Notes: generated by a model not told the origin, from the letters alone. A stretch of DNA of 64,000 nt from Rhodospirillales bacterium (GCA_028277795.1 JANQFP010000208.1:3751-67750); one strand, 5' to 3'; shown: positions 2,079-21,689, counted from the first letter of the stretch. A program made the numbers and translations.

Positions 2079-2094
2079 TGGCACAGGATTTGCT
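2079..2094 (+). promoter_or_regulatory. Sigma-54 (-24/-12) promoter TGGCAC-N5-TTGCT
   Basis: The sequence TGGCACaggatTTGCt matches the consensus TGGCAC-N5-TTGCW exactly. It sits 66 nt upstream of the ATG at 2160. An AT-rich tract (2042-2068) lies between it and the palindrome and could be a bending site. Confidence 0.8.
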
Positions 2095-2159
2095 AATATT
2101 AGAGAAAGCTTGATAAAGCGTTTCGATTCAGCCAATCTTCGGGACGAAGGGGAGGAGCG

Positions 2160-2555: not shown

Positions 2556-2558
2556 CCC

Positions 2559-3689: not shown

Positions 3690-3737
3690 TCCCGCGCCGC
3701 CGCTCAAGCGGCGGCACGCGGGGGGAATTCAGCGACG

Positions 3738-6700
3738 ATGGCCGAGACCCAAACGCCGCACCAGCCCCAGGACCCGTCCGCCCACGCGCACGGCCACACC
3801 CTCGGGCTGGCCGGCCGTATGACCCGGGCCTTCATCCATTCGCCGCTGTCGCCTCTGCTGCTGCTGGCCAGCCTGTCGGTGGGCATTCTCGGCCTGCTGT
3901 TCACGCCGCGCCAGGAGGACCCGCAGATCTCGGTGCCGATGATCGACGTGTTCTTCGGCTACCCGGGCGCGTCGGCCGAGCAGGTGGCGAGCCTGGCGGT
4001 CGACCCCCTGGAGCGGATCATGAGCGAGATCCCGGGGGTCAAGCACGTCTACTCCGCCTCCCAGCGGGGCGGCGGCATGGTCACCGTGGAGTTCGACGTG
4101 GGCGAGGAGATGGAGCCTTCGCTGGTCAAGCTCTACGACAAGCTGATGTCCAACATGGACAAGGTGCCGCCCGGGGTCACCGAGCCCCTGGTCAAGCCCA
4201 AGGGGGTGGATGACGTCCCCGTCGTCACCCTGACCCTGTGGTCCCACGACCTGGACGACGCGGCCCTGCGCCTGATCGGCCTCGACGTGCTGCAGCGGCT
4301 CAAGGAGGTGCCCGACACCAGCCAGAGCTTCATCGTCGGCGGCCGGTCCGAGCAGATCCGGGTCGAGGTGTTCCCCGAGCGCTTGGCCGGCTACGGGGTC
4401 AGCGCCGGGCAACTGGCCCACACCATCTCCACCGCCAATGCGGAGCAGGGGGCCGGGTACGCGGAATCGGCGGGCGGCAGCTTCGAGCTCTACTCGGGCG
4501 CCTTCCTGACCCGCGCCGAGGACATCGAGCGCCTGGTGGTCGGCGTCCGCAACGGCGCCCCCATCTACGTGCGCGACGTGGCCCTGGTGCGCGAGGTCGC
4601 CGAGGAGACCCGGGCGCTGGTGCAGTACTACACCGGCAGGGCCTACGGGCAGGACTTCGAGAAGCGGTTCGACGTCAAGCCCCCGATCGAGGCCGGGGAC
4701 GGCACGCCGGCGGTCACCATCGCCGTGGCCAAGAAGCCCGGCACCAACGGCGTCACCGTGGCCGCCGCCATCCTCGAGCAGGTGGAGCAGCTCAAGGGGC
4801 GCATCATCCCTGACAACGTCCAGATCGCCGTCACCCGCAACTATGGCGAGACCGCCAACGACAAGGTCAACGAGCTGATCTTCAAGCTGTTCATCGCCAC
4901 CGGCGCGGTGACCCTGCTGATCTGGTTCTTCCTCGGCTTCCGCGCCGCGGTGGTGGTGCTGATCGTCATCCCGGTGGTCATCCTGGTCACCGTCTTCTCG
5001 GCCTGGCTGCTCGGCTACACCATCGACCGGGTGAGCCTGTTCGCCCTCATCTTCTCCATCGGCATCCTGGTCGACGACGCCATCGTGGTGATCGAGAACA
5101 TCTACCGCCGCTGGCTGATCAAGGGCGAAGTGGACACCGAGACCTCGGTGGACGCCGTCCGCGAGGTGGGCAACCCCACCATCCTGGCCACCTTCACGGT
5201 CATCGCCGCGCTGCTGCCCATGGGCTTCGTCAGCGGCATGATGGGGCCGTACATGGAGCCCATCCCGGTGCTCGGCTCGGTGGCCATGCTGTTCTCGCTG
5301 TTCGCCGCCTTCATCTTCACCCCCTGGCTGGCCATCCGCATCCGTCCCAGCCTGGCCAAGCTCGACAAGGCCCAGGTCAAGGAGCACCGCCAGTCGGAGC
5401 GCCTGGACGGGGTGTTCCGGCGCATGTTGACGCCGCTGATCGATCACCGGGGCCGCCAGGTCATGCTGCGGGTCAGCATCTACGCCGTGTTCGCGCTGCT
5501 GTGCGCCATGTTCTACACCACCCACGTCACGGTGAAGATGCTGCCGTTCGACAACAAGCCCGAGTTCAACGTGGTGGTGAACATGCCCGACGGCACGGCG
5601 CTGCCGGAGACCGCCAACGTCATCCAGCGCCTGAGCGAGGAGGTCCTCGACATCCCGGAGGTGGTCGCCATCCAGACCTACGCCGGCACGGCCTCGCCCT
5701 TCAATTTCAACGGCCTGGTCCGCCACTACTACCTCAGGCAGGACTCCTGGCAAGGCGACATCCAGATCCAGCTCCTGCACAAGAACGACCGCGAGCGGAG
5801 CAGCCATCAGATCGCGTCGGCGGCGCGCGAGGCCCTGACGCCCATTGCCAGCGATCTGGGCGCCAAGATCCAAATCGTCGAGATGCCGCCGGGACCGCCG
5901 GTGCTGCAGACCATCGTGGCCGAGATCTACGGGCCCGACCAGCACACCCGGCGCAAGGTGGCGCGCGACATCACCGGCCTGTTCGAGGAGGCGCCGAGCG
6001 TCGTCGACGTCGACAATTACCTGCAGGACCCCTACGAGATCTGGCGCTTCGTAGTCGACCGCGAGAAGGCGGTCCGGCGCGGCGTGTCGGTGGAGGACGT
6101 CAACACCCAGCTCGGCATGGTCATGGGCGACTTCAAGCTCGGCGACGTCAAGGTCGGACGGGTCCTGGAGCCGCGCTACATCACCCTGCAGGCTCCCATG
6201 GCCCTGCGCAGCCAATTCTCGCGCATGGGCGAGCTGCCGATCCCGTCGTCCCAGGGCAACCTGATCCCGCTGGGCGAGCTCGGCCAGTTCGAGCGCATCA
6301 CCCAGGATCCCATCGTATTCCACAAGGACCTGCGTCCCGTCGAGTACGTGACCGGCGACGTGGCCGGCCGCCTCGGTGCGCCCATCTACGGCATGCTGGA
6401 GGTCGAGGATCTCCTCGCGGATTACGTGGCGCCGGACGGTATCCGCGTGGAGACCGAGTACCTGGGACCGCCCAAGGACAGCTTCGCGTCGGCCTTCGAG
6501 TGGACCGGCGAATGGACGGTCACCTACGAGACCTTCCGCGACATGGGCCTGGCCTTCGCCGCCGCCATGGTCCTGATCTACATGCTGGTGGTGTGGGAGT
6601 TCGGCAACTTCCGGCTGCCGGGGATCATCATGGCGCCGATTCCGCTCACCTTGATCGGCATCATTCCGGGCCACTGGTTGTTCGACGCAGAGTTCACCGC

Positions 6701-7988
6701 AACCTCGATGATCGGGTTCATCGCCCTGGCCGGCATCATCGTGCGCAACTCCATCCTGTTGGTGGATTTCTCCAAGCAGGCGGTGGAGGCGGGCACCGAT
6801 CTCAGGGAGGCGGTCATTCAATCCTGCCGTACCCGGACCCGGCCTATCCTGATCACCGCTTTCGCCCTGGTGCTGGGCTCGAGCGTCATCCTCACCGACC
6901 CCATCTTCGAAGGGATGGCCATCTCGCTGATGTTCGGGGTCATGGTCTCGACCCTGCTCACCCTCGTCATCATCCCGCTGGGCTGCGTCCGGGCCAGGAA
7001 CTCCTTCGCCATTCCGCCTGCCGACCCGGCGGTCGCTGCTGCGGCGCCGGCCCCGGCCATGGCGGCCCCGGCCGCCGCGGGCGCCGCCGCGGCACCGGGC
7101 GCCGCAGCGTCGCCGACCGGTTTCGCCGATGAAGCCGGAAAGCCGGGCCGCCTGGCCAGGATCGGGCGGGCGGTGTTCATGGCGCCGGCCATTCTGCTCA
7201 TGTTCCTGGGTGCCGCCCTGCAGACCATCTTCGGGCGGTTCCAGAAGTTCCCGCCGGTCCGCTGGATCACCATGATCGTCTACGGCCTGCGGGCGCTGCC
7301 GTATTTCGTCATGCTGTTCCTGCGCGAGACCTTCAAGAGCAAGGGCGGCGGAGACCGGGCGCCGCAGCCGGCCGCCGCCGCGCCGGCGCCTTCGGCCCCG
7401 CCAGCCGCCGCGGAGCCCGCGGCGCCGCAGCCACCCGCGCCGGCAGCGCCACCCGAACCGGAGCCGGCCCCGGAGCCGGTCGTGCCGTCGGAGCCCGTTC
7501 CGGAGCCCGCCGAGCTGGCTTCGGAGCCTGCGCCCGAGCCGGCCCCTCCGCCTGCCGCCTCGGAACCGGCGAGCCCGGTCCGGCCGGCCGAGAAGCCTGC
7601 CCGCAAACCGGTCGCCACGGAGCGCCGGACCATCAAGCCGAAACCGCCGGCGCCGCGGCCCGAGGCACCTTCGACGCCCGCCGCCACCGGCGATGCGGCC
7701 GAGGCCGGACGGGAGCGCGAGACCACGGCGGCGCCGGCGCCGGCCCGGCCCGGCAAACGCGCCATCCGGCCGCGCCCCATCGCTCCGAAGAAGGCCGCTG
7801 CGACGGGGCCTGCCGAGGCGGGGAAAGCCGAGCGGCCGGCCGCCAAGACCGCCAAAGCCCCTGGTAAGAAGCCCGCCGCCGACGAGAAACCATCGCCGAC
7901 CGGCCGGCGTCCCGGCGAGCGCCGCGGCATTCGCCTCAGAATCAAGCCCGGCCAGGGAAAGAAGCCGGGACCGGAAGGGAGTCGGTGA
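3738..7988 (+). CDS. RND efflux permease (AcrB/COG0841-like) with an atypical ~330-aa C-terminal extension
   Basis: The 12-TM RND core has typical motifs (FALIFSIGILVDDAIVVIENI, GFIALAGIIVRNSILLVDF) and ends near nt 7000. The frame then stays open for about another 330 codons, encoding two extra hydrophobic helices and a Pro/Ala/Lys-rich tail. Confidence 0.9.
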   Translation: MAETQTPHQPQDPSAHAHGHTLGLAGRMTRAFIHSPLSPLLLLASLSVGILGLLFTPRQEDPQISVPMIDVFFGYPGASAEQVASLAVDPLERIMSEIPGVKHVYSASQRGGGMVTVEFDVGEEMEPSLVKLYDKLMSNMDKVPPGVTEPLVKPKGVDDVPVVTLTLWSHDLDDAALRLIGLDVLQRLKEVPDTSQSFIVGGRSEQIRVEVFPERLAGYGVSAGQLAHTISTANAEQGAGYAESAGGSFELYSGAFLTRAEDIERLVVGVRNGAPIYVRDVALVREVAEETRALVQYYTGRAYGQDFEKRFDVKPPIEAGDGTPAVTIAVAKKPGTNGVTVAAAILEQVEQLKGRIIPDNVQIAVTRNYGETANDKVNELIFKLFIATGAVTLLIWFFLGFRAAVVVLIVIPVVILVTVFSAWLLGYTIDRVSLFALIFSIGILVDDAIVVIENIYRRWLIKGEVDTETSVDAVREVGNPTILATFTVIAALLPMGFVSGMMGPYMEPIPVLGSVAMLFSLFAAFIFTPWLAIRIRPSLAKLDKAQVKEHRQSERLDGVFRRMLTPLIDHRGRQVMLRVSIYAVFALLCAMFYTTHVTVKMLPFDNKPEFNVVVNMPDGTALPETANVIQRLSEEVLDIPEVVAIQTYAGTASPFNFNGLVRHYYLRQDSWQGDIQIQLLHKNDRERSSHQIASAAREALTPIASDLGAKIQIVEMPPGPPVLQTIVAEIYGPDQHTRRKVARDITGLFEEAPSVVDVDNYLQDPYEIWRFVVDREKAVRRGVSVEDVNTQLGMVMGDFKLGDVKVGRVLEPRYITLQAPMALRSQFSRMGELPIPSSQGNLIPLGELGQFERITQDPIVFHKDLRPVEYVTGDVAGRLGAPIYGMLEVEDLLADYVAPDGIRVETEYLGPPKDSFASAFEWTGEWTVTYETFRDMGLAFAAAMVLIYMLVVWEFGNFRLPGIIMAPIPLTLIGIIPGHWLFDAEFTATSMIGFIALAGIIVRNSILLVDFSKQAVEAGTDLREAVIQSCRTRTRPILITAFALVLGSSVILTDPIFEGMAISLMFGVMVSTLLTLVIIPLGCVRARNSFAIPPADPAVAAAAPAPAMAAPAAAGAAAAPGAAASPTGFADEAGKPGRLARIGRAVFMAPAILLMFLGAALQTIFGRFQKFPPVRWITMIVYGLRALPYFVMLFLRETFKSKGGGDRAPQPAAAAPAPSAPPAAAEPAAPQPPAPAAPPEPEPAPEPVVPSEPVPEPAELASEPAPEPAPPPAASEPASPVRPAEKPARKPVATERRTIKPKPPAPRPEAPSTPAATGDAAEAGRERETTAAPAPARPGKRAIRPRPIAPKKAAATGPAEAGKAERPAAKTAKAPGKKPAADEKPSPTGRRPGERRGIRLRIKPGQGKKPGPEGSR

Positions 7989-8704
7989 TGGAATTCAGAT
8001 CGCTCACCTGTGCCGTGGCGTTCGTCGGCCTCGCCGGGCTGACCTGGGCCGGGACGGCGCTGGCGCAGGGCGCCGCGGTGCCGGCGCCGCCGGAAGGGCC
8101 GTACGCCTCGGGCGAATTGCCGCCCGTGCATACGACCGAGCCCGGCGGGGGCTTCCCGCCCCTCGACTACGATCCCAGGCGCGCCTCGGTGCCGCGACCG
8201 GCGTGGACCAAGCCCCGCGCTCCTTCGATGCAGCGGGTGATCCCGGCGTGGCGCCCGGTCGTGCCCCAGCCGCGGACGAGCCGGGAGCCGACCCCGCAGC
8301 GGGGAGAGCAGGCGCGGACGGCGACTCCGGCCGCACGGCCGTGGCCGGGACTGGTCCCCTACCGGATGCCGTCCGGGACCTTGCCTGCGACGCGTCCCTC
8401 CGCGTGGCCGGTGCCGCGGCCGGTAACGCCGCCGGCTCCGGCCGTGACGCGGCCGCAAGCGACCGCGCCCGCGCAGATCCCGAGTCCGGCGGCACCGGCA
8501 GGCGGGGCCATCAAGCCGGCCCGCCCGCCGGAATCGGCGCCCAAGGAGGCGCCGACGTACGCGCCCTTGCCGGAAGGCGAGGGCTCGGTGTGGCGTCCCC
8601 GCGGCGAGGACCGTGAGAGGGCGCCCTACCGTCCGTTCCGGCATGGAGCGTCGTCCTGGGGCGGCGCCGAATATGGCGCGTCGTCCGCCACGGACTCGCG
8701 TTGA
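7985..8704 (+). CDS. Exported proline-rich protein (hypothetical)
   Basis: A signal peptide is present (MMEFRSLTCAVAFVGLAGLTWAGTALAQG) and the rest is ~25% Pro. The start overlaps the RND stop (GTGATG). There is no recognisable domain. Confidence 0.5.
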   Translation: MMEFRSLTCAVAFVGLAGLTWAGTALAQGAAVPAPPEGPYASGELPPVHTTEPGGGFPPLDYDPRRASVPRPAWTKPRAPSMQRVIPAWRPVVPQPRTSREPTPQRGEQARTATPAARPWPGLVPYRMPSGTLPATRPSAWPVPRPVTPPAPAVTRPQATAPAQIPSPAAPAGGAIKPARPPESAPKEAPTYAPLPEGEGSVWRPRGEDRERAPYRPFRHGASSWGGAEYGASSATDSR

Positions 8705-8724
8705 ACCAGGTGATCGGAAGTCCC

Positions 8725-9732
8725 ATGACAAATTCCTTGGCGCGCCTCGTTCTCTCCGCCCTCGCCGTGGCCTCGCTGGCAGCCGGCGCGTGGGCCGGCA
8801 ACCCGTGGCAGAGCCAGTCCGACTACTACGGCGGGGCGCAGCAGCAGGCTCCGTCGTGGTCGACGCCGGCGCCCTACACGGCCGATACCCTGCTTCAGCG
8901 GGCCCGCCCCTCGGTCCCGTCGGCGCCCGGGGTGCAGCCCTACGGAGCGCCGGGCGCGCCGCACCAGGCGCCGACAACCGGGTACTACCCGGCGCCGCAG
9001 CAGCAGTACCCGGGTACCGCGCCGCAGTATCCGGCGCCGGGCTACGGGGCCGCACCGTCGGACCAGCCGGTCTATGGCGGGCAACCTGGCGGCTATGGCC
9101 CGGGGGACTACGGAGGCGGCATCCCGCCGACCCAATTCCCCTCGGCGGCCAGCCCTTATGCGCCGGGAGGGCAGGTCTACGCACCGCCCCTGTCCGAATA
9201 CCCGCCGCTCGACGATTCCGTGCCGCCGCGCGCCGGACCGCCGCCGGGGACCTACGCGCCGCCAGCCGGCTACGCGCCGCAGCAAACGGCCCCGACGTAC
9301 GCGGCTCCGCCGGCCGGCTATGCGACCCAGCAGCCGGCACCAAGCTACGCAGCGCCGCCGGCCGGCTACGCGACACAGCCGACGACCACCTACGCGCCGG
9401 CGGGGACGCAGGCCGCGCCGGTGATCACATACCCTCAGGCAACCGTGGTGGCGCCGCAAGTCGGCTATCCGGCCTACGGAGTGCCGGGGCTGGGATACGG
9501 CGGCCTCGGCCATCCGGGTCTGGGCTACGGTCTCGGGTACGGCGGCCTGGGCTACGGTCTGGGCTATCCGGGGCTGGGATACGGCGGCCTCGGCCATCCG
9601 GGCCTGGGCTACGGTCTCGGGTACGGAGGCCTTGGCCACGGTCTCGGGTATGGAGGTCTGGGTTACGGGGGTCTGGGTTACGGGGGGCTCGGTTATCCGT
9701 GGTTGGGCGGATTTCCGGGGCTCACATGGTGA
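8725..9732 (+). CDS. Exported Pro/Tyr/Gln-rich protein with a C-terminal GLGYG repeat array
   Basis: The signal peptide is MTNSLARLVLSALAVASLAAGAWA. It is followed by YAPP/YPAP repeats and then (P)GLGYGGLGH / GLGYG repeats, ending in GFPGLTW. The ATG at 8725 is preferred over the TTG at 8701. Confidence 0.6.
   Translation: MTNSLARLVLSALAVASLAAGAWAGNPWQSQSDYYGGAQQQAPSWSTPAPYTADTLLQRARPSVPSAPGVQPYGAPGAPHQAPTTGYYPAPQQQYPGTAPQYPAPGYGAAPSDQPVYGGQPGGYGPGDYGGGIPPTQFPSAASPYAPGGQVYAPPLSEYPPLDDSVPPRAGPPPGTYAPPAGYAPQQTAPTYAAPPAGYATQQPAPSYAAPPAGYATQPTTTYAPAGTQAAPVITYPQATVVAPQVGYPAYGVPGLGYGGLGHPGLGYGLGYGGLGYGLGYPGLGYGGLGHPGLGYGLGYGGLGHGLGYGGLGYGGLGYGGLGYPWLGGFPGLTW
9484..9651 (+). repeat. Two tandem 84-nt units (~92% identical) encoding 28-aa PGLGYGGLGHPGLGYGLGYGGLG(Y/H)GLGY
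   Basis: I aligned the two units by eye (9484-9567 against 9568-9651) and found 6-7 mismatches in 84 nt, in frame. Confidence 0.85.
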
Positions 9733-9840
9733 TGGCCCGTGGCGGGTATCGTGTCGCCACGGGGCAGGACGGATACCGGGGGCGTTCCCTCCTTCCGGCG
9801 TCCGAAGTGGGAGAGGGAGCAAACATTGAGGAGTAAATCC

Positions 9841-10194
9841 ATGAGGAAAACTCTCAAGGCACTCGCCGTGGCGGGTCTGTTCGGCGCCGCCAGCGCCCTG
9901 CCGATCGGCGACGCCAATGCGTTCATGTTCAGCAGCGGCCCCGGCGGCGACGGATTCAACTTCAGCATGGGCTCCGGCGGCTACGGCTGGGGCCGTGGCC
10001 ACGGCTGGGGCGGCCCGTGGGGCGGCTACGGCGGCCCGTGGGGCGGCGGCTACGGCTGGGGCGGCCCGTGGGGCGGCTACGGCTATGGCGGCCCGTGGGG
10101 CGGCGGCTACGGCTACGGCGGCCCGTGGGGCGGCTACGGCTATGGCGGCCCGTGGGGCGGCTATGGCGGCGGCCCCTGGGGTGGTTGGTGGTAA
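9841..10194 (+). CDS. Small exported Gly/Trp/Tyr-repeat protein (GGPWGGYG repeats), paralog 1
   Basis: The ATG at 9841 follows a GAGGAG Shine-Dalgarno sequence. The signal peptide is MRKTLKALAVAGLFGAASALPIGDANA. The mature ~90 aa are almost entirely G/W/Y/P with about 9 GGPWGG(G)YG units, ending GGPWGGWW. Confidence 0.75.
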   Translation: MRKTLKALAVAGLFGAASALPIGDANAFMFSSGPGGDGFNFSMGSGGYGWGRGHGWGGPWGGYGGPWGGGYGWGGPWGGYGYGGPWGGGYGYGGPWGGYGYGGPWGGYGGGPWGGWW

Positions 10195-10213
10195 ACACCG
10201 GCTCTGGCTGGTC

Positions 10214-10236
10214 GGACGGCCCTTATTCGGCCGTCC
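10214..10236 (+). terminator. Hairpin GGACGGCC-cttattc-GGCCGTCC downstream of paralog 1
   Basis: It has a perfect 8-bp GC stem and lies 20 nt after the stop codon. There is no U-tract, so the terminator call is tentative. Confidence 0.4.
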
Positions 10237-10394
10237 GGCTGGCCGCCACCACACACACTTGAAAGGGTCCTGCCGAGGTTAGGTCGCGTGATGCGGCGGG
10301 GCCCGCGGTCCCACAGGGGAGGACGGATGCCGGGGGTTTTCCCTCCTTCCGGCATTCGAGGTGGGAGAGGGAACAGAGTTCGAGGAGTAGAGCC

Positions 10395-10727
10395 ATGAGG
10401 AAAACTCTGAAGGCACTCGCCGTGGCGGGTCTGCTCGGTGCCGCAAGCGCCGTGCCGATCGGCGACGCCAAAGCGTTCATGTTTGGCGGCGACGGCATGC
10501 ACTTCAGCATGGGCGACGGCTATGGGTATGGCCGTGGCTACGGCTGGGGTGGCCCTTGGGGTGGCTGGGGCGGCCCTTGGGGCGGTTACGGTCCCTATGG
10601 CTGGGGCGGTCCGTGGGGCGGCTACGGCCGGGGCGGCCCGTGGGGCTATGGCGGCCCGTGGGGCGGCTATGGCTGGGGCGGCCCTTGGGGCGGCTACGGT
10701 GGCGGTCCCTGGGGTGGTTGGTGGTAG
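10395..10727 (+). CDS. Small exported Gly/Trp/Tyr-repeat protein (GGPWGGYG repeats), paralog 2
   Basis: Its signal peptide is nearly identical to paralog 1 (MRKTLKALAVAGLLGAASAVPIGDAKA). It has the same repeat type, the same GGPWGGWW C-terminus and the same 74-nt leader. Confidence 0.75.
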   Translation: MRKTLKALAVAGLLGAASAVPIGDAKAFMFGGDGMHFSMGDGYGYGRGYGWGGPWGGWGGPWGGYGPYGWGGPWGGYGRGGPWGYGGPWGGYGWGGPWGGYGGGPWGGWW

Positions 10728-10742
10728 GCACCGACCGCGGCT

Positions 10743-10770
10743 GGACGGGCGGCCCGTTCGCGAACCGTCC
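10743..10770 (+). terminator. Hairpin GGACGG...CCGTCC downstream of paralog 2
   Basis: It occupies the same position as the hairpin after paralog 1, with a 6-bp outer stem. There is no U-tract. Confidence 0.3.
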
Positions 10771-10904
10771 GGCCACCACCCCGCATGCTCGGCAGGCTCC
10801 CGCCGCCGGCACGATCGCGTGACGCGGCGGGTCGGGTGACGCCGCACCGGTTGCGGTGCGGTGTCATCCCCCTGCCCGGCAATAGAACAAAGGGAGTGAA
10901 GTCC

Positions 10905-11783
10905 ATGCGGAAATACCTGTGGTTTCCCGCCGCAGTCTTCTTTCTCGCCGGCGCCGCCGGTGCCCAGGCGGGAAGCCCGTCGTTCACCGCGGACACCGTG
11001 CAGCGCCATCCCCAAGCCGGTGTGCAGCAGGGGCGCATCTTCGTCTCCGAGCTCGGGACGCGCATGGAGGGCAAGGACCAGCAGGGCCGCCAGGTGATCC
11101 AGATCACCCTGCCCAAGGAAGGCATCATGCGGGTGCTGTTCCCCGAAGAGGGGACCTACATGGAGGTCCAGGGGCCCAAGGCTCCGGCCCAGCCGATGCC
11201 CAAGCCGGACAACCCGTGCGCCATGGCGCCGCCGGAGAGCAAGTGCGAGCGGGTCGGCACCGAGACCCTGGGTGCGGTGGCGACCGAGCAGTATCGTTTG
11301 ACCATCAAGGACGCCAAGGGGCCGGTGACCGTCTGGTGGGATCCCCAGCGCAAGCTTCCCCTGCGCCAGGAGAACCCCGACGGCAGTTCCGTACAGCAGA
11401 CGCTTCGCGGCGAGACCCAGTACGAAGGCCGCCGGGTCGAGCACTGGGTGACGACCATGGTCACGCCGCAGGGACAGACCCATACCGTTCAGAGATGGGA
11501 CGACCTGGAACTCAAGATTCCCGTGTACCAGCAGTTGGGTGAAGGCACGACCAGCGAGTTGCACAACATCCGGCTGGTCAGTCCCGACCCGGCGTGGTAC
11601 CAGGTACCGCAGGGCTATCGGCGGGTGGAGCCCCAACAGCAGCAGCAACAGCAGCAGCCGCAGCAACAGCAGCGGCAGTGGGGCGCCCAGCCGCCCCCGC
11701 AACAGCCCAGGCAGCAGTGGCGCGGTCAGCCGCAGCAGCCGCAGCAGCAATGGGGGGGCCAGCGACCTGCCTGGCAGCGGTGA
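10905..11783 (+). CDS. Periplasmic LolA-like / DUF4412-like protein with a C-terminal polyglutamine tail
   Basis: The signal peptide is MRKYLWFPAAVFFLAGAAGAQA. A beta-rich body follows (RIFVSELGTRMEGKD..VIQITLPKEGIMRVLFPEEGTYMEV). The last ~50 aa read QQQQQQQQPQQQQRQWGAQPPPQQPRQQWRGQPQQPQQQW. The ATG at 10905 is preferred over the track start at 10785. Confidence 0.6.
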   Translation: MRKYLWFPAAVFFLAGAAGAQAGSPSFTADTVQRHPQAGVQQGRIFVSELGTRMEGKDQQGRQVIQITLPKEGIMRVLFPEEGTYMEVQGPKAPAQPMPKPDNPCAMAPPESKCERVGTETLGAVATEQYRLTIKDAKGPVTVWWDPQRKLPLRQENPDGSSVQQTLRGETQYEGRRVEHWVTTMVTPQGQTHTVQRWDDLELKIPVYQQLGEGTTSELHNIRLVSPDPAWYQVPQGYRRVEPQQQQQQQQPQQQQRQWGAQPPPQQPRQQWRGQPQQPQQQWGGQRPAWQR

Positions 11784-12421
11784 TGATCACGGTCGTCGGC
11801 AATCTCAAGGGCGGGACGGGGAAGAGCACCGTCGCCTTCAACCTGGCCATCTGGCTGCTCGCCCGGGGGCGCAAGGTCGAGTTGTGCGACCTCGACCCCC
11901 AGGCGACGCTGCACGATGCCGCCGAGGTCCGCATGGAGGAGGGGTACGACCCGGGATTGAGCGTTCTCGACCGCATCCCCCAGAAGCCGCAAAGCGAGAT
12001 CCTGGTGGACGTGGGCCTGTCCGACCAGGACGCCATGCAAAAAGCCATCGCGCGCGCCGGCCAGATCCTGATCCCGGTGGCGCCGAGCCAGGCCGACGTA
12101 TGGTCCACCCAACGTTTTCTCGAGATTGTCGACGAGGTGGCGCCGAAACGGAAGCGGCCGCGCCTGGTCGCCTTCATCAACCGTGCCGATACCCATCCCG
12201 CGGCCCGCGAGAACGAGGAGGCGTCGACCGCCCTTCGTCTGCTGGACGGCCTGACCGTGCTCAGGCCGCGCCTGGCCCAGCGGATGGCCTTCCGCCGTTC
12301 GTTCAGTGAGGGCCTCGGCGTGTTTGAAATGGAACCTCGCGGCAAAGCCGCAAAGGAACTCGAGGCGCTGGCCATCGCCCTGTTCGGTCGCGGCCGTGGC
12401 AAGCAAAAAGACGAGGAATAA
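11783..12421 (+). CDS. ParA/MinD-family P-loop ATPase (deviant Walker A)
   Basis: The N-terminus MITVVGNLKGGTGKSTVAFNLA contains the deviant Walker A KGGxGKS/T. DLDPQ and a Walker B-like ILVDVG are also present. The start ATG overlaps the upstream stop (TGATGA). The part of the track ORF upstream of 11783 is an out-of-frame-gene artefact. Confidence 0.85.
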   Translation: MITVVGNLKGGTGKSTVAFNLAIWLLARGRKVELCDLDPQATLHDAAEVRMEEGYDPGLSVLDRIPQKPQSEILVDVGLSDQDAMQKAIARAGQILIPVAPSQADVWSTQRFLEIVDEVAPKRKRPRLVAFINRADTHPAARENEEASTALRLLDGLTVLRPRLAQRMAFRRSFSEGLGVFEMEPRGKAAKELEALAIALFGRGRGKQKDEE

Positions 12422-12438
12422 TTAGGAGAACACAAGAA

Positions 12439-13341
12439 ATGGCTACCATTCGTTGGCTGTTTACGAACCTGTTGATCGTCCTGGTGGTCGTGACCGGCAT
12501 CCTCGGTGCCGCCTATTGGCGGGAGATCCGCCAATACCTGGTCGTCGTGGCCGACGAGTGGGGCATCGAGGCCACGGCCTTGCGCACCACCGGCCACGCA
12601 ACGCCCCGTCCGGCCGCGCCGCCGCCGATGACGGCCGCGCCAGCCCCGGCCGCGCCGCCGGCGGCGGCGCCACAACCCGCCGCGGCGCCGCAACCGCCGG
12701 CCCCAGCCCCGGCCGCGCCGCCGAGCGCGGCAGCGCCGCCGCCCGCAGCGGCTCCGGCGCCGAGCCCTCCGGCCCCGCCGGCGGCCGCGCCGCAGCCGCC
12801 CGCCGCAGCGGCGCCGAGCCCCTTGATGCCACCTGCGGCACCCAGGCCGGGTGGTTACACACCGCCGCAGGGCACCTATGCCCCGCCGGCCCCCGCCTAC
12901 CGGCCGGCGAGGCCGGCCGCCCCGCCGGCGGCGGCTCCGGCCCCCGCTGCCCCGCCGCAGGTGACGACCGCGCCGCCACCGTCGGCGCCGGCCCCGGCGG
13001 CCCAGGACACCGCCGACCTGCGCCAAGGCTGGATCGAGGCGCGACGCGCCTACTGGACACGGGATCTGGAGACGGCCGAAGAACGCTACCGGGCGTTGAT
13101 CGCCCGCCACCCGGACCAGGTGGACCTCCTGGGCGAGCTGGGCAACGTGTACTTCGCCCAGGGTAAGATCAAGGAAGCGGCTTCGCAGTATTTCGAGACC
13201 GGGCTGCGGATGCTCGACGGGCCCAATCCGGCCCGCGCCGGCACCGTCCTCAGCCTGCTCGAGCGGCTCGATCCGGACAAGGCCAGTGAACTGCGCCAGC
13301 GCATGTTCGAGGCCATGCAGGGCCGCGGTCCGGCCCGCTGA
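12439..13341 (+). CDS. Membrane-anchored Pro/Ala-rich protein with a C-terminal TPR-like domain
   Basis: The N-terminal TM segment is WLFTNLLIVLVVVTGILGAAYW. A ~150-aa PAAPP low-complexity linker follows. The C-terminus is TPR-like (AEERYRALIARHPDQVDLLGELGNVYFAQGKIKEAASQYFETG). Confidence 0.65.
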   Translation: MATIRWLFTNLLIVLVVVTGILGAAYWREIRQYLVVVADEWGIEATALRTTGHATPRPAAPPPMTAAPAPAAPPAAAPQPAAAPQPPAPAPAAPPSAAAPPPAAAPAPSPPAPPAAAPQPPAAAAPSPLMPPAAPRPGGYTPPQGTYAPPAPAYRPARPAAPPAAAPAPAAPPQVTTAPPPSAPAPAAQDTADLRQGWIEARRAYWTRDLETAEERYRALIARHPDQVDLLGELGNVYFAQGKIKEAASQYFETGLRMLDGPNPARAGTVLSLLERLDPDKASELRQRMFEAMQGRGPAR

Positions 13342-13388
13342 CCGCGGCCGGGACGCGACAAGGAACGCCGGCAGGGAGGCACCATGTC

Positions 13389-13985
13389 ATGAACCTCATC
13401 CGCAACATCCTGGCGATCATCGGGGCTCTGGTCATCGTCGGCGCGGCCGTCGCCTATCCGACCGTCTCCCGCTTCCTCGAGTTCGACGAGGGGGCGATGG
13501 ACACCTACGCCGAGATGATGACCAAGCTCCTGGAGACCGGCAATCCGGCGGAAGCCACCGTCTGGAAGATGAAGGTCGCCGACGGCATCACCTTCGAAGA
13601 GCTGGAAGAAACCATGCGCTTCGTCGCCAACGAGCACAACTTCATGAACGTGGGCGAGTTGCCGTTCTACCGGCAGATCGAGGCGATCTACGAGCAGACC
13701 CCGGGATTCGAGGGCAGGAAACGGCGGATCACCAAGTTCTACCTGTTCTGCGATGCGCTGGTGGGCGCCGACATGCTGGACTACAGCGACGCCTACTCGG
13801 CCTATATGCCGTGTCGAATCAGCGTCGTAGAAGATAAGGACGGAAACCTGTGGCTCTATTCCATGAACATGGACATGATGATCCACGGAGGCGACCCTTT
13901 GCCGCCTAAGCTCAAAGAGGACGCCATTCGGGTCAAGAAGGTCATGCTCGACATTATGAACCGTGCGGCGTCGGGCGACTTCTGA
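13389..13985 (+). CDS. DUF302-domain protein with an N-terminal membrane anchor
   Basis: A TM or signal-anchor segment (ILAIIGALVIVGAAVAY) is followed by a DUF302-like core containing YMPCRISVVEDKDGNLWLYSMN. Confidence 0.65.
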   Translation: MNLIRNILAIIGALVIVGAAVAYPTVSRFLEFDEGAMDTYAEMMTKLLETGNPAEATVWKMKVADGITFEELEETMRFVANEHNFMNVGELPFYRQIEAIYEQTPGFEGRKRRITKFYLFCDALVGADMLDYSDAYSAYMPCRISVVEDKDGNLWLYSMNMDMMIHGGDPLPPKLKEDAIRVKKVMLDIMNRAASGDF

Positions 13986-14058
13986 CCCATCGTGTTGGGG
14001 GGAGGGAGATGACTGACGACATCGGAAGCACGACGGACTGCGGCAGGGAGACCAGGCC

Positions 14059-15597
14059 ATGTTGACCGGCCCCGGTAAGACCCTGGCTGCCCGATTGGCC
14101 AGCCTGGAGGCCCAACTGAAGGCTGAGCATCCTGACCTCCTGGAGGCGGTGCCCACCTACAAGCGCATGGATCGGCTGCTCTATGGCATGGGCTTGATGA
14201 GCACCGACGAATCCCTGGCCACGCGCATTCCCTGGTGGCCGCTGATCGCGGTGCTCGGCACCTTCTCGTCGGGCAAGTCCACCTTCATCAACCACTACCT
14301 GGGCCTCAAGCTCCAGGCCACGGGCAACCAGGCGGTGGACGACAAGTTCACGGTGATCTGCTACGGCCCCGACGACGAGCACCGGGTGCTGCCGGGCACC
14401 GCCCTGGACGCGGACCCCCGCTTCCCGTTCTATGGAATGAGCGCCGAGATCGACAAGGTGGCGGCCGGCGAGGGCAAGCGCATCGACGCCTACCTGCAGC
14501 TCAAGACCGCCTGCAGCGAGGCGCTGAGAGGCAAGATCCTTATCGATTCCCCGGGATTCGACGCCGACGACCAGCGCCGCTCGACCCTGCGCCTGACCGA
14601 TCACATCATCGACCTCTCCGACCTGGTCCTGGTGTTCTTCGATGCCCGCCATCCCGAGCCGGGGGCCATGCAGGACACCCTGGAGCATCTGGTCGCCGCC
14701 AACCTGAAGCGCCCGGATGCCAGCAAGTTCCTGTTCATCCTCAATCAGCTGGACACCACGGCGCAGGAGGACAACCCCGAGGACGTGGTGGCCGCGTGGC
14801 AGCGGGCGGTTGCCCAGGCCGGCCTGATGACGGGCCGCTTCTTCTGCATCTACAACGAGCAGGCCGCCGTCCCCATCCCCGACGAGGCCTTGCGCCGGCG
14901 CTTCGAGGGCAAGCGCGACGTGGACATGGACGAGATCTACCGGCGCATCCGGGACGTCGAGGTACAGCGCGCCTACCGCATCGTCAACGTCCTGGAGGCA
15001 GTGGGGGACGACCTGGAGAAGGACGTGGTTCCGGTCCTCAACGAAGTCCTGTCACGGTGGCGCAAGAGGGTGCTGATGGTCGACGGCATCGCCTTCGTGG
15101 TGGCGGCGTTGGTGACCGTCGGCGTGGGCTTCGCCGTCGGCGGGGAGGCGGTGGGCACGGCGTGGCAGTGGCTGCTGGACGTGCATCCGCTTGGCCTGGC
15201 GGTGGCCCTGGCCCTGGTGTTCACGGCCATGGCCGGCGTCCATTTCGCGGTGCGCAACGTGCTGGCCCGCATGATGGCGCGGGATTTGCCCGAGTCCTAT
15301 GGCCCGGTGGAGCTGAACCTGCGTGAGGCCTTCATCAAGAACACCCGGTACTTCCGGGCCCTGTACCGTCAACATCCCGTCGGTTGGGGCCGCCGCACCA
15401 TGCGGCGGCTGCGTGAGATCGTCGACGCGGCCGACCGGCACGTGCAGCGATTGAACGACATGTATACCGACCCCTCGGGCCACCGGGCAAAGGCCGAAAC
15501 CGAAGCGCCCGCGACGTCGGCGCCCCCGGAGGAGGAGCCGGCGGCCACCAAGAGCGGTCCGTTCTTAACCAAGGCGGCGGGCGGCAAGAGCGGCTGA
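14059..15597 (+). CDS. Dynamin-family (bacterial dynamin-like) GTPase with a C-terminal hydrophobic paddle
   Basis: G1 is GTFSSGKST, G3 is DSPGFD and G4 is NQLD. A hydrophobic hairpin is present (IAFVVAALVTVGVGFAV ... LAVALALVFTAMAGVHFAV). Confidence 0.8.
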   Translation: MLTGPGKTLAARLASLEAQLKAEHPDLLEAVPTYKRMDRLLYGMGLMSTDESLATRIPWWPLIAVLGTFSSGKSTFINHYLGLKLQATGNQAVDDKFTVICYGPDDEHRVLPGTALDADPRFPFYGMSAEIDKVAAGEGKRIDAYLQLKTACSEALRGKILIDSPGFDADDQRRSTLRLTDHIIDLSDLVLVFFDARHPEPGAMQDTLEHLVAANLKRPDASKFLFILNQLDTTAQEDNPEDVVAAWQRAVAQAGLMTGRFFCIYNEQAAVPIPDEALRRRFEGKRDVDMDEIYRRIRDVEVQRAYRIVNVLEAVGDDLEKDVVPVLNEVLSRWRKRVLMVDGIAFVVAALVTVGVGFAVGGEAVGTAWQWLLDVHPLGLAVALALVFTAMAGVHFAVRNVLARMMARDLPESYGPVELNLREAFIKNTRYFRALYRQHPVGWGRRTMRRLREIVDAADRHVQRLNDMYTDPSGHRAKAETEAPATSAPPEEEPAATKSGPFLTKAAGGKSG

Positions 15598-16097: not shown

Positions 16098-17498
16098 TTA
16101 CTTGTACCCTCTCAGCTCGTCGATGTACTCGGGCAGGAACAGGGAGATCTCGGGCACGTAGGTGATCAGGATCAGGAACAGAACCAGGATTCCCGCCCAC
16201 GGCAGGGCGGCCCGTAGCACCCAGAGCAAACTTCGCCCGGTGATGCCGGCGGCGACGAACAGATTAAGGCCCACCGGCGGCGTCACCATGCCGATCTCCA
16301 TGTTCACCACCATGATGATGCCCAGGTGGACGGGATCGATGCCCAGCTGGACGGCGATGGGCAGCAGGATCGGGGCCATGATCAGCAGGATCGCCGACGG
16401 CTCCATGAAATCGCCGGCGAGGATCAGGATGACGTTGAGGACGATGAGGAACCCCCAGGCGGGCAGACCCCAGCCGATGATGGCCTCGGCGATCAAGTGG
16501 GGAATGCGCTCGGTCGTCAGCACATGGGCGAACAGCATCGCGTTGGCGATGATGAACAGCAGCATGATGGCGACTTTGGACGCGTCGAGGATGACCCTGT
16601 GGACGTCGGGATCGCCGGCGCTCCGCACCAGCGCAACGCCCATGCCGCCGACATTGCGCATTGCGGCCGTGGCGAGGGGCTCGTCGGGGCGACGCCATGG
16701 CACCCCTTTCATGGGGCCGATGTCCCTGTAGCCGAAGATGGACACGCAGTAGGCATAGAACGCCGACACCGCGGCCGCCTCGGTGGGGCTGGCGATGCCG
16801 CCGTAGATGGCGCCGAGGACGATGATGATCAGGAAGATGCCCCCCGACGCGGCGAAGGCCGAGACGAAGACCTCGCGGAACCCGGCCCACGGCTGGGCCG
16901 GCAGGTTCTTGACCCGGGCCGCGATATAGATGGCGACCATCAGCATCAGGCCCATGATGATGCCGGGGATGAAGCCGGCCATGAACATGCGCGCCGCCGA
17001 GACCTCGGTGGCGGCGGCGTAGACCAGCATGACGATGGACGGGGGAATGAGGATGCCCAGGGTACCCGCGTTGGAGATCACGCCGACGGCGAACCGCTCC
17101 GGGTAACCGGCGCGGACCATGCCTGCGATGACGATGGAGCCGATGGCGGCCACGGTGGCCGGCGACGAGCCCGACACGGCGGCGAACAGCATGCTGGCCA
17201 GCACCGAGGCCATGGCCAGGCCGCCGCGCACCATGCCGACGACGGAGATGGCGAAGCGGATGAGCCGTCGGGCCACGCCGCCGGTGGACAGGAAGGCCGA
17301 CGACAGGATGAAGAACGGGATGGCCAGCAGGGTGTAGTGCTCGGACAGGTTCTCGAAGAACTTGAGCGCCACGGAGGCCAGGGAATCGGGGGAGAAGAAC
17401 AGGATGGTGACGACGCTGGACAGGCCCAGGGCGATTGAGATGGGCATGCCCAGGAACATGCACCCGAACAGGATGATGAACAGCGCAGCGGTGGTCAT
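16098..17498 (-). CDS. dctM: TRAP transporter large permease DctM (copy 2, no cognate DctQ)
   Basis: It is ~80% identical by eye to the DctM at 18695-20095. The ATG at 17498 (MTTAALFIILF) aligns with the start of the paralog. Confidence 0.9.
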   Translation of the reverse strand: MTTAALFIILFGCMFLGMPISIALGLSSVVTILFFSPDSLASVALKFFENLSEHYTLLAIPFFILSSAFLSTGGVARRLIRFAISVVGMVRGGLAMASVLASMLFAAVSGSSPATVAAIGSIVIAGMVRAGYPERFAVGVISNAGTLGILIPPSIVMLVYAAATEVSAARMFMAGFIPGIIMGLMLMVAIYIAARVKNLPAQPWAGFREVFVSAFAASGGIFLIIIVLGAIYGGIASPTEAAAVSAFYAYCVSIFGYRDIGPMKGVPWRRPDEPLATAAMRNVGGMGVALVRSAGDPDVHRVILDASKVAIMLLFIIANAMLFAHVLTTERIPHLIAEAIIGWGLPAWGFLIVLNVILILAGDFMEPSAILLIMAPILLPIAVQLGIDPVHLGIIMVVNMEIGMVTPPVGLNLFVAAGITGRSLLWVLRAALPWAGILVLFLILITYVPEISLFLPEYIDELRGYK

Positions 17499-17655
17499 CG
17501 CAGATGCCCGCCCTCTGTTCGGGCGTGGACCGCCGGCATACGCGTCTCGTTGATCGCGGAAACCAAACCCGGTTCGGTGCCGATACAGGCGCACACGCCC
17601 ATCGGACGACGGCCTCCCCCCTTATACCCCTGCTTCTCTTGTTGGTCTGTCTTGT

Positions 17656-18651
17656 CTATTGATTGGACGCGACGGCCGCGTCGATCAGGTCCTTTCCGAT
17701 CTCGGCTTCGAACTCCTTCCACACCGGCATCAGCGCTTGGCGCCAGACGTCCCGTTCGGCCTCGTTCAGCGTCATGACTGTGACTTGCCCCGACTCGGCG
17801 ATCTCGCGGCGATTGGCGATGGCCTTTTCCTGCGCCAGCCGGCGGACCTCGGCGGTGACCTCGGCCAGGATGTTCTCCAGCTCGGTGCGGATGTCGGGTG
17901 GCAGGCTGTTCCAGAAGTTGGAGCTGGTGACCACCATGTAGCCCAGGTACGTGTGGCCCACCTCGGTGAAATACCTGTGCACGGTGTGCAGCTTGCGCGA
18001 GTAGATGTTGGACCACGCGTTCTCCTGGCCCTTGACCAGTCCTTCGCGCACCGCGTCGTAGACCTGCTTGAACGCCATGGGGAAGGTGTTGACCCCGATG
18101 CGGGACCACTGGGCATGGAACACCGACGAGGGTTCGATGCGGAAGGTCAGGCCGCGGGCGTCCTCGGGCCGTCGCAGCGGTTGGTTGGCCGAGATCACAC
18201 GGGGGCCGTTGTCCCAGTAGGCCAGGCCCTTGATTCCGCGCTCCTCCATGGAATCGAGCAGGGCGCGGCCGGGCGGGCTGGCCTGGAAGCGGTGCAGGGC
18301 CTCCATGTCCTTGAACAGGAAGGGCAGGTCGAAGATCTGCAGCTTCTTGGTATAGGTGCGGAACTTGGCCAGGGACGGGGCCGCCATCTCCGCGTCGCCC
18401 AGCAGCAGGGCCAGCAGCACTTGGTTGTCATTGAACTTGATGGACCGGGGATAGACCTCCACCCGCACGCGCCCCGCCAGCCGCTGCTCCACCAGGGTCT
18501 TGAACAGGGTGGCGCCCTCTCCCTTGGGAGTCCGTTCGCCGACCACGTGGGCGAAGCGTATGAGAATCTCGTCGGCCGCCACCGGCTGGACGGCGACCAG
18601 CAGGAGACCGATGGCTGCGACGGCTGATCTCAACAACGACATCGGGTGCAC
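17656..18651 (-). CDS. dctP: TRAP transporter solute-binding protein DctP (copy 2)
   Basis: It has a signal peptide and DctP motifs ([29 protein letters not shown]). It is a paralog of the gene at 20685-21677. Confidence 0.9.
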   Translation of the reverse strand: MHPMSLLRSAVAAIGLLLVAVQPVAADEILIRFAHVVGERTPKGEGATLFKTLVEQRLAGRVRVEVYPRSIKFNDNQVLLALLLGDAEMAAPSLAKFRTYTKKLQIFDLPFLFKDMEALHRFQASPPGRALLDSMEERGIKGLAYWDNGPRVISANQPLRRPEDARGLTFRIEPSSVFHAQWSRIGVNTFPMAFKQVYDAVREGLVKGQENAWSNIYSRKLHTVHRYFTEVGHTYLGYMVVTSSNFWNSLPPDIRTELENILAEVTAEVRRLAQEKAIANRREIAESGQVTVMTLNEAERDVWRQALMPVWKEFEAEIGKDLIDAAVASNQ

Positions 18652-18694
18652 TCCCCGTTTTCGAGGGACGCGCCGGCCTCCACCGGCCGCGACG

Positions 18695-20095
18695 TTATTT
18701 GAACCCCTTCAGGTGGTCGATGTACTCGGGCAGGAACAAGGAGACCTGCGGCACGTAGGTGACGATGATCAGGAACACGAGCAGGATCGCCAGCCACGGC
18801 AACGCTGCCCGCATGGCCCACAACAGGCTGTGCCCGGTGATGCCGGCGATGACGAACAGGTTCAGTCCCACCGGCGGCGTGATCATGCCGATCTCCATGT
18901 TGACCACCATGATGATGCCCAGGTGGATCGGGTCGATGCCCAGGGTCACGGCGATGGGGAACAGGATGGGGGCCATGATGAGCAGGATGGCCGACGGCTC
19001 CATGAAGTTGCCGGCGGCCAGCAGCAGCAGGTTGACCACGATCAGAAAGCCCCAAGCCGGCAGGCCCCACTGGACGATGGCCTCGGTGATCAGGTGCGGG
19101 ATGCGCTCGCTGGTCAGCACGTGGGCGAACAGCATGGCGTTGGCGATGATGAACAGCAGCATGATGCTGACCTTGGCCCCGTCCATCACCACCTTCTGGA
19201 CTTCCGCGCTGGCAAAGCTCTTGGGCAGGGCGACCAGAATCTGGCCCGCGTTGCGGACCGCCACCTTGCCCCACGGCTCGCCGTCGTGGCGCCACGGCAC
19301 CTCCTTGAGGGGACCCATGTCCCGGTAGCCGAACACGGCCACCAGGTAAGCGTAGACGGCGGAAATGGCCGCCGCCTCGGTGGGGCTGGCGACACCGCCG
19401 TAGATGGTGCCCAGCACGATGACGATGAGCAGAATGCCGCCCGTGGCGCTGAACGCCGATGCGAAGACCTCGCCGAAGCCGACGAACGGCTGCGCGGGCA
19501 GGTTCTTGAACCGCGCCACGATGTAGATGGCGATCATCAGCATCAGGCCCATGGTGATGCCGGGGATGAAGCCAGCCATGAACATCCGCGCCGCAGACAC
19601 CTCGGTGGCGGCGGCGTAGACCAGCATGACGATGGACGGCGGAATAAGAATGCCCAGGGTGCCGGCATTGGCGATAACGCCGGCGGCGACGGACTCCGGA
19701 TAGCCGGCGCGGACCATGCCCACGATGACGATGGAGCCGATGGCGGCCACCGTGGCTGGTGACGAGCCCGACACGGCGGCGAACAGCATGCAGGCGACCA
19801 CCGAGGCCATGGCCAAGCCGCCACGCACCATGCCGACCACGGATATGGCGAAACGGATCAGCCGCCGCGCCACCCCGCCCGTGGACAGGAAGGCCGACGA
19901 CAGGATGAAGAAGGGGATGGCCAGGAGCGTGTAGTGCTCGGACAGGTTCTCGAAGAGCTTCAGCGCGATGGACGCTAGGGAATCCTCCGAGAACACGAGG
20001 ATGGTGAAGACACTGGACAGGCCGAGCGCGATGGCGATGGGCATGCCCACGATCATGCAGGCGAACAGGCTGATGAACAGGGCGGCCGTAGTCAT
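18695..20095 (-). CDS. dctM: TRAP transporter large permease DctM (copy 1)
   Basis: It is a 466-aa polytopic protein. Its start overlaps the dctQ stop. Confidence 0.9.
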   Translation of the reverse strand: MTTAALFISLFACMIVGMPIAIALGLSSVFTILVFSEDSLASIALKLFENLSEHYTLLAIPFFILSSAFLSTGGVARRLIRFAISVVGMVRGGLAMASVVACMLFAAVSGSSPATVAAIGSIVIVGMVRAGYPESVAAGVIANAGTLGILIPPSIVMLVYAAATEVSAARMFMAGFIPGITMGLMLMIAIYIVARFKNLPAQPFVGFGEVFASAFSATGGILLIVIVLGTIYGGVASPTEAAAISAVYAYLVAVFGYRDMGPLKEVPWRHDGEPWGKVAVRNAGQILVALPKSFASAEVQKVVMDGAKVSIMLLFIIANAMLFAHVLTSERIPHLITEAIVQWGLPAWGFLIVVNLLLLAAGNFMEPSAILLIMAPILFPIAVTLGIDPIHLGIIMVVNMEIGMITPPVGLNLFVIAGITGHSLLWAMRAALPWLAILLVFLIIVTYVPQVSLFLPEYIDHLKGFK

Positions 20096-20652: not shown

Positions 20653-20684
20653 GTCGGGTTGCTACGCCGCGGTGTGGTCCACGA

Positions 20685-21689
<1,005 letters not shown>

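Follow-up and report, generated by a model that had tools for sequence, protein, structure and literature searches.

Layout and conservation of the gene cluster

The inspection of a 64 kb stretch of DNA from a Rhodospirillales bacterium (GCA_028277795.1; the whole stretch is referred to as the window) revealed three linked genes on the plus strand, coding for a secreted LolA-like protein, a small ParA ATPase and a bitopic protein with a C-terminal tetratricopeptide repeat (TPR) region. The window has a G+C content of ~69%, which renders lists of open reading frames (ORFs) noisy; real genes were picked out by their third-position G+C. The LolA-like gene (10905-11783; 292 aa) is preceded by an AAGGGAG ribosome-binding site, and its TGA stop codon (11781-11783) overlaps the ATG of parA (11783-11785) by 1 nt, within the sequence TGATG. 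The parA gene (11783-12421; 212 aa) ends in TAA (12419-12421); this is followed by 17 nt containing AGGAGA and then by the ATG, at 12439, of the third gene (12439-13341; 300 aa), whose product is named TM-TPR here for its transmembrane (TM) helix and TPR end. An earlier reading of this DNA, made from the sequence alone (the sequence-only reading), had presented the three genes as a linked trio. The three ORFs lie where it placed them and the overlap of the LolA-like stop with the parA start was correctly seen, although the spacing after parA is 17 nt and not 18. The trio, however, is not a unit: it is formed by three consecutive members, in the middle of a conserved operon of ~13 kb and 13 genes.

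In the window the cluster spans positions 535-15597, with the gene for a sigma-54-dependent activator at one end and a dynamin-family gene at the other. The closest homologue of the LolA-like protein was found in Magnetospirillum sp. WYHS-4, where the full neighbourhood is syntenic (sigma-54 activator, 131-aa protein, membrane-fusion protein, long resistance-nodulation-division (RND) pump, three unannotated genes, LolA-like, ParA, TPR, DUF302, dynamin) and is flanked by sequences unlike those of the window. The same gene order was present on additional metagenome contigs. A scan of genomes identified 16 further loci, in Rhodobacterales (Marinosulfonomonas, Profundibacter and Sinisalibacter aestuarii), Rhodomicrobium, Thiotrichaceae and unclassified Gammaproteobacteria, and a scan of metagenomes added 33 loci. 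A search with ParA led to the complete 4.02-Mb genome of Magnetospira sp. QH-2 (locus L027), in which the cluster is chromosomal. Cultured carriers include this strain, Magnetovibrio blakemorei and S. aestuarii B-399. A literature search on the gene combination found no description of the cluster.

The order of the genes was established by tblastn of the window's proteins against all loci. The consensus is membrane-fusion protein, RND pump, ~2.5 kb of genes for low-complexity (LC) proteins, LolA-like, ParA, TM-TPR, DUF302 (not always present) and dynamin; content, order and tight spacing are kept in 48 distinct loci from Rhodospirillales, Rhodobacterales, Rhodomicrobium and Gammaproteobacteria. 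Enough sequence past the LolA-like gene to judge the placement of parA was available for 45 of these 48, and in 42 of them parA is the very next gene, always with an ATG start. The distance from LolA-like stop to parA start is -4 to +68 nt in most of these 42 loci; overlaps of -20 and -635 nt were inferred in four cases and probably stem from stops that were mis-called. Three loci lack ParA. In L003 a terminator immediately after the LolA-like gene closes the cluster. In the two Rhodomicrobium loci (L012 and L013) the pump, LC, LolA-like and TM-TPR genes are all retained, and no ParA, DUF302 or dynamin was found within 3-9 kb.

ParA, the TM-TPR protein and the tail of the RND pump

The ParA protein matched CbiA, AAA_31 and MipZ in Pfam and has an intact deviant Walker A motif, K9-G-G-T-G-K14-S-T16, as the sequence-only reading had noted (KGGTGKS in a 212-aa protein). 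In 41 sequences of the subfamily this motif is invariant, with both lysines K9 and K14, as are the A' aspartates D36 and D38 (in DLDPQ) and the Walker B aspartate D76. A further block, QRxAFRRSFSEGLxVFE, is highly conserved, most of its positions being invariant or nearly so. The AlphaFold2 (AF2) model had a mean confidence (pLDDT) of 89, with residues 204-212 disordered and lineage-specific. The best structural match was ParF of TP228 (TM score 0.80-0.83, rmsd 2.4 Å), the complex 5u1g being among the matches; next came McdA, MinD, MipZ and Soj. The best family match, at 126.9 bits and thus under the cutoff of 180, was the equivalog NF041546 ('ParA family partition ATPase'), while TIGR03371 (BcsQ) matched only weakly (36.8 against a cutoff of 157.85). 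A lookup for sequences identical to this ParA gave no match. No ParB- or ParG-like gene was found in the window's cluster or in related loci (42 loci), and the canonical parS sequence TGTTNCACGTGAAACA was matched nowhere in the 64 kb, even when as many as 3 mismatches were tolerated; a cognate ParB/parS was what the sequence-only reading had named as a sign of a role in DNA segregation. Its view that ParA serves an envelope system, rather than being a stray partition gene, agrees with the position of parA behind the LolA-like gene in 42 of 45 loci from two proteobacterial classes. ParA is thus an orphan, ParF-like ATPase dedicated to the envelope cluster.

The sequence-only reading had further proposed that the bitopic protein is the adaptor of ParA. 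Its description of that protein was right in outline: a single TM helix (residues 7-25) follows a 6-aa N-terminal stub and leads into a linker of 152 residues, 70% of them Pro or Ala, and then into a C-terminal TPR region (residues 201-255 matched TPR_16 with 34.0 bits, the cutoff being 32.7). In 17 homologues the N-terminal flank of the TM helix carries basic residues only (+1 to +2, rising to +5 in the Rhodomicrobium proteins with their N-terminal extension of 70 aa), and in most of them the 15 residues past the helix are net acidic. By the positive-inside rule these flanking charges predict an N-in protein in which the Pro/Ala linker and the TPR are periplasmic and the cytoplasmic part measures only 4-8 residues. 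TM-TPR would also seem to function without ParA, since Rhodomicrobium keeps the former and has none of the latter. The role assigned to the linker and TPR by the sequence-only reading is therefore not upheld, and that reading is probably wrong about the adaptor. The predicted layout resembles that of TonB or TolA and of the periplasmic TPR protein CpoB (YbgF): an N-in anchor, a Pro-rich spacer spanning the periplasm and a C-terminal protein-binding domain. Unlike TonB and TolA, however, TM-TPR ends in a 100-aa TPR region with no TonB or TolA domain, and no ExbBD or TolQR partners are present.

A better candidate is found at the end of the RND pump. The gene for a membrane-fusion (periplasmic adaptor) protein with a signal peptide (2559-3689, plus strand; TIGR01730 RND_mfp, 163.8 bits, above cutoff) is syntenic in all long loci and is followed by that of a 1416-aa pump with an AcrB-like core (3738-7988, plus strand; ACR_tran, E 1e-144). 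The pump is diverged, scoring under the cutoff of every named NCBIfam subfamily, and no gene for an outer-membrane factor is present in the cluster. In every locus the pump continues beyond TM12 for 116-355 aa. The extension of the window's pump (331 aa; nt 6993-7988), in which the helices were examined, consists of two extra hydrophobic helices and a basic, Pro/Ala-rich disordered tail; the two helices should form a hairpin, returning the end of the tail to the cytoplasm. The tail is strongly basic in every ParA-containing locus and near neutral in Rhodomicrobium; it is still basic in the ParA-less L003. Many tails are made of Ala/Lys/Pro (AKP-type) repeats, such as AAKPKAAAKPKAPAKPK in L014, a likeness to histone H1-like tails (e.g. 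that of AlgP). AKP-type repeats bind DNA or polyanions. Here, in contrast to the H1-like proteins, they are joined to a transporter, and the tail of the window's pump is richer in Pro, Ala and Glu, with basic residues concentrated in its last ~110 aa.

These tails cannot be aligned with one another except for a short peptide, R[RK]GI[RQ]L[KR], located 3-16 aa from the C-terminus. In the window it reads RRGIRLR (pump residues 1395-1401; 7920-7940, plus strand), and it is a candidate for binding ParA or the dynamin-family protein. All 20 distinct loci in which ParA and the end of the pump are both visible have the motif, and none of the three that lack ParA (L003, L012 and L013) has it; this co-variation (20/0 versus 0/3) is uncorrected for phylogeny. 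ParA proteins are known to be activated by short, basic stretches within flexible regions (in the ParG tail, at the N-terminus of ParB, in MinE and in McdB), which the pump-tail motif presumably resembles; the ParB peptide is of the RRGLGRGL type. The features of these sequences thus point to the pump-tail peptide, rather than to TM-TPR, as most likely the adaptor of ParA.

Other members of the cluster and its surroundings

The LolA-like protein begins with the signal peptide MRKYLWFPAAVFFLAGAAGAQA, followed by G, with cleavage between AQA and G. It gave no Pfam match at E<=0.1, but DUF4412 was matched by 15 of 40 family representatives (best E 1.1e-8). In its AF2 model (pLDDT 78.8) residues 23-246 were confident and the tail was disordered. 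A Foldseek search with the model returned 44 matches at E<=1e-3 which, save four PNGF-II chains, belong to the LolA superfamily (RseB/MucB, LolA, LolA3, LolB, NE2245, DUF1329 and EPDR1), with low TM scores (0.2-0.5) due in part to disordered tails. The label 'LolA/DUF4412-like' given by the sequence-only reading is thus appropriate for both family and fold, the protein being probably a divergent DUF4412 member of the superfamily. The LolA/LolB/RseB/DUF4412 proteins share secretion to the periplasm and an open β-barrel fold that binds hydrophobic ligands. The window's protein is not an orthologue of LolA, however: its identity to solved members of the superfamily is 10-14%, the cluster contains no LolCDE, and it has instead two family-specific invariant cysteines and a lineage-variable low-complexity tail. 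The cysteines (C105 and C114) fit a periplasmic disulfide. An exhaustive profile search found 167 representatives of the family at E<=1e-30 and 895 at E<=1e-10; it showed that an apparent family of only six members, obtained in a word-indexed search, was an artefact of sensitivity. A literature search on DUF4412 found nothing relevant.

The Gln-rich tail, which the sequence-only reading had singled out, does exist: the last 54 residues include 26 Q, 9 P, 7 R, 4 W and 4 G, with a longest Gln run of 8. It is not, however, a feature of the family. Its length varies with lineage (19-99 aa in Rhodospirillales-type loci, ~210 aa in Rhodomicrobium), and a Gln/Pro tail is absent from the LolA-like proteins of the Rhodobacterales and Gammaproteobacteria loci. 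Long C-terminal extensions recur in the family, whose representatives reach 647 aa. The tail looks like another case of the low-complexity sequence that characterises this cluster, not like a key functional element.

Such sequence is most evident between the pump and the LolA-like gene, where the ORFs, all on the plus strand, proved to represent three real LC families, identified by short motifs and by a fixed order in both classes. All three have signal peptides. LC-A (7985-8704) is a Pro-rich protein with no Pfam match; its PPPxGPY motif and its place in the gene order recur in alpha and gamma loci alike. LC-B (8701-9732; the true start is probably the ATG at 8725) is rich in G, P, A, Y and Q and has motifs conserved across loci, namely NPW after the signal peptide, YPPL(D/S) (YPPLD in the window), GLGYG repeats, to which a weak match to Lamprin is due, and a C-terminal aromatic residue, the end being usually FGFW or LTW. 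LC-C is present in two tandem copies of 117 aa (9841-10194; GGPWGGYG repeats and a GDGFNFSMGSG core) and 110 aa (10395-10727; a duplicate of the former). The family is rich in Gly, Trp, Tyr and Asn, and alpha and gamma loci share its conserved core, G[DS]F[ND][FM]x[FM]xG; both of the window's proteins contain ~50% Gly and 13-15% Trp and have GGWW at the end. Relatives of LC-C outside the cluster show compositional likeness only.

Downstream of TM-TPR lie a gene for a membrane-anchored DUF302 protein (13389-13985, plus strand; E 4e-9, supported by synteny), which is absent from Rhodobacterales-type loci, and the last gene of the cluster, coding for a dynamin-family NTPase with a C-terminal hydrophobic hairpin (14059-15597, plus strand; Dynamin_N, 58.4 bits against a cutoff of 27). 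The latter is 53-72% identical across classes, and the solved sequences nearest to it are the eukaryotic ATPases EHD4 and EHD2, not the bacterial dynamin-like proteins of solved structure.

At the other end of the cluster, the sigma-54-dependent activator (535-1938, minus strand) combines PAS, AAA+ and HTH_8 domains (Sigma54_activat, E 1e-67; PAS and HTH_8 Pfam matches), is transcribed divergently from the rest of the cluster and is syntenic in L002 and L004. A sigma-54 promoter, TGGCAC-N5-TTGC (2079-2093, plus strand), lies 67 nt upstream of the p131 gene and is the single exact match to this sequence in the window. Near-consensus sites were found at the same distance in L002 (TGGTAT-N5-TTGC) and L004 (TGGTAC-N5-TTGC). 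Such a promoter was rejected as a general feature of the cluster, being seen only in these three loci, which also carry the activator. The gene for p131 (2160-2555, plus strand), a small cytoplasmic protein, is the first of the operon in Rhodospirillales-type loci, to which it is restricted; its homologues in L002, L004 and L027 are 66-77% identical. It gave no Pfam match even at E<=10, and a PDB profile search was empty. The possibility that p131 is an SCP2 lipid carrier was discarded, as hhalign against human SCP2 gave a probability of 0.7%. A Met-rich coiled-coil TM protein is a further member of the cluster in Rhodobacterales, Gammaproteobacteria, Rhodomicrobium and Magnetospira (for example L014 2248-2739, L017 12927-13937 and L012 ~13003-13593, the last on the minus strand). 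No homologue of it was found anywhere in the window; the upstream position is occupied by the activator and p131 in window-type loci.

A gene for a transglutaminase-like cysteine peptidase (BTLCP, Peptidase_C93; 90-515) is located just upstream of the activator and is not syntenic in related loci. Beyond the dynamin-family gene, the window contains two sets of TRAP transporter genes (16098-21677), two divergent genes for PPK2 polyphosphate kinases beside an alpha-amylase-family gene (21957-26260), and a group of protease-type genes (27857-36108) coding for a protein with TPR and a trypsin-like protease, a DUF4384 protein, a caspase-domain protein and an S41/PDZ peptidase. A type VI secretion cluster follows at 43808-62406 (TssA, TssM, DotU, TssK, VipA, VipB, Hcp, a gp25-like protein, TssF and TssG).

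A possible envelope machine and its alternatives

The operon may encode an envelope-spanning machine in which ParA positions or spaces the machine itself, rather than DNA, by way of the pump-tail peptide as adaptor; we regard the case for this as evenly balanced. The RND pump and its fusion protein would move a probably hydrophobic cargo out of the inner membrane, and the LolA-like protein could act as its periplasmic carrier or chaperone. The three secreted LC families might constitute a matrix or coat. TM-TPR would be a scaffold anchored in the inner membrane and spanning the periplasm, built like TonB or TolA, and may read the aromatic C-termini of LC-B and LC-C. Nucleoid-bound ParA would position or space the pump through the tail peptide, which would work in the way that basic peptides of ParG, ParB or McdB do in activating their own ParA proteins, and the dynamin-family protein could remodel the inner membrane at the same site. 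A bolder version holds that the transporter is itself the ParA cargo, its H1-like cytoplasmic tail ending in a ParB-like activating peptide, so that pumps are spaced over the nucleoid, and that the operon builds an undescribed periplasmic or surface deposit or compartment from the LC proteins, fed by the LolA-like carrier and shaped by an EHD-like dynamin; in this extended form the proposal is rather unlikely.

Several observations weigh against a machine positioned by ParA through the pump tail. The dynamin-family gene is missing from the same three loci as ParA, so that the motif co-varies equally with it and its partner could be either NTPase. The three loci represent only two lineages, and in L010 the motif reads RRGIQLK. 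The topology of the extra pump helices is a prediction, and a single membrane-spanning helix among the two would put the tail in the periplasm. For TM-TPR, the flanking charges of the window's own protein are nearly balanced and the topology call rests on the family. No substrate-related enzyme is conserved in the cluster.

The ambiguity between the two NTPases leads to another reading, in which the motif recruits the dynamin-family protein, ParA works with the latter, and ParA is an assembly or polarity switch like MinD, FlhG or BcsQ that makes no use of the nucleoid. ParA, the dynamin-family gene and the motif are indeed present or absent together, and other envelope operons contain ParA/MinD ATPases; the window's ParA matched BcsQ weakly. 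Yet no amphipathic membrane-targeting helix is evident at the C-terminus of ParA, where residues 204-212 are disordered and lineage-specific, and the closest fold is that of the nucleoid-associated ParF rather than MinD, which renders this reading rather unlikely. The ParF fold and the best family match, on the other hand, are what would be expected of an ordinary plasmid or island DNA-partition ATPase that came to lie in the cluster by chance. We consider this highly improbable, as the score is below the partition-family cutoff, ParB- and ParG-like genes (in the 42 loci) and canonical parS (in the window) were not found, parA keeps the same place in the operon in both classes and shares one base with the gene before it, and in Magnetospira sp. 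QH-2 the cluster is chromosomal. The adaptor role of TM-TPR, linking ParA patterning to the envelope via a cytoplasmic TPR or via the N-terminal stub, draws on the position of its gene, which is always directly 3' of parA and in the window has its own ribosome-binding site, and on a conserved basic residue of the stub followed by an aromatic residue or Leu (xxIRW, LIRW, FLRL). This basic residue, however, is what any N-in anchor needs, and the predicted periplasmic location of the linker and TPR, together with the retention of TM-TPR in ParA-less Rhodomicrobium, make the proposal quite unlikely.

A different kind of alternative concerns the product: the cluster could build periplasmic globules of sulfur or of another hydrophobic mineral, with the LC proteins as a coat like that of sulfur globule proteins (Sgp), the pump and the LolA-like protein handling hydrophobic sulfur, and ParA and dynamin spacing and shaping the deposits. 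Carriers of the cluster include Thiotrichaceae and sulfur-oxidising magnetotactic genera. Many others, however, are Rhodobacterales not known to store sulfur. LC-C, being small, secreted, repetitive and rich in Gly and aromatic residues, with regularly spaced Pro, fits the published description of Sgp (PMC10386293), and sgpD of A. vinosum adjoins a gene for a hydrophobe/amphiphile exporter (PMC10386293), an adjacency that counts weakly in favour of this alternative. In Magnetospira sp. QH-2 a gene for a sulfide:quinone-reductase (SQR)-like flavoprotein (NF049943; L027 13242-14540) lies directly downstream of the cluster, although this link comes from one genome and the score is 111 bits against a cutoff of 525. 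Against it, no sox, dsr or sqr genes were found in the window and no named Sgp was among the homology matches of LC-C. The identification of the Gly/Trp proteins as sulfur globule proteins was not retained, the search having given only unnamed small secreted proteins of similar composition, encoded by stand-alone genes in unrelated contexts. A literature search on dynamin and sulfur globules found nothing relevant. Sulfur or mineral globules are, on this evidence, an unlikely product of the cluster.

Comparison with known systems places the proposed ParA-positioned pump near, but not within, several of them. The resemblance to ParF-ParG of plasmid TP228 (type Ib partition) extends to the fold of ParA, its small size (~205 aa) and the lack of a DNA-binding domain at its N-terminus. 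The ParF ATPase of TP228 is activated by its partner through a basic, flexible peptide. Here, however, identity is ~22%, no ParG-like gene or centromere (searched for as canonical parS) is present, the gene belongs to an envelope operon, and the candidate activating peptide is at the C-terminus of a membrane transporter. In McdA-McdB (carboxysomes), PpfA-TlpT and ParC-ParP (chemoreceptor arrays) a ParA-type ATPase stands beside a non-DNA cargo, the adaptor being a basic or disordered protein segment. The cargo proposed for the present cluster differs in being an inner-membrane RND pump complex with a built-in adaptor tail, and this ParA, in comparison with cargo-positioning orphan ParAs, retains the signature lysine K9. 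BcsQ, FlhG and TadZ are likewise ParA/MinD-family ATPases of secretion or assembly operons, presumably controlling where or whether a machine assembles, but the window's ParA scores far under the BcsQ cutoff and none of their partner genes is present. SgpA-D share with LC-C the features given above, including Sec export (PMC10386293), but there is no detectable homology, and the LC genes are part of a large operon while sgp genes are monocistronic (PMC10386293).

The significance of the cluster lies in its combination of parts and in its spread. The window's ParA shares at least 55% identity with more than 120 ParA clusters, and the 167 LolA-like representatives likewise indicate that the cluster is widespread; the cluster itself appears uncharacterised. 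Its RND pump, LolA-like carrier, TonB-like TPR anchor, EHD-like dynamin and three LC families are rarely met together, which suggests that an envelope structure has so far gone unrecognised. The cargoes known for ParA-type ATPases are DNA, carboxysomes, chemoreceptor arrays and a few polar machines, so orphan ParAs for non-DNA cargo are not new in themselves. If the proposed role of the tail peptide is true, however, a transporter carrying its own ParA adaptor peptide would be a new class of ParA cargo, and would offer a simple peptide-ATPase pair.

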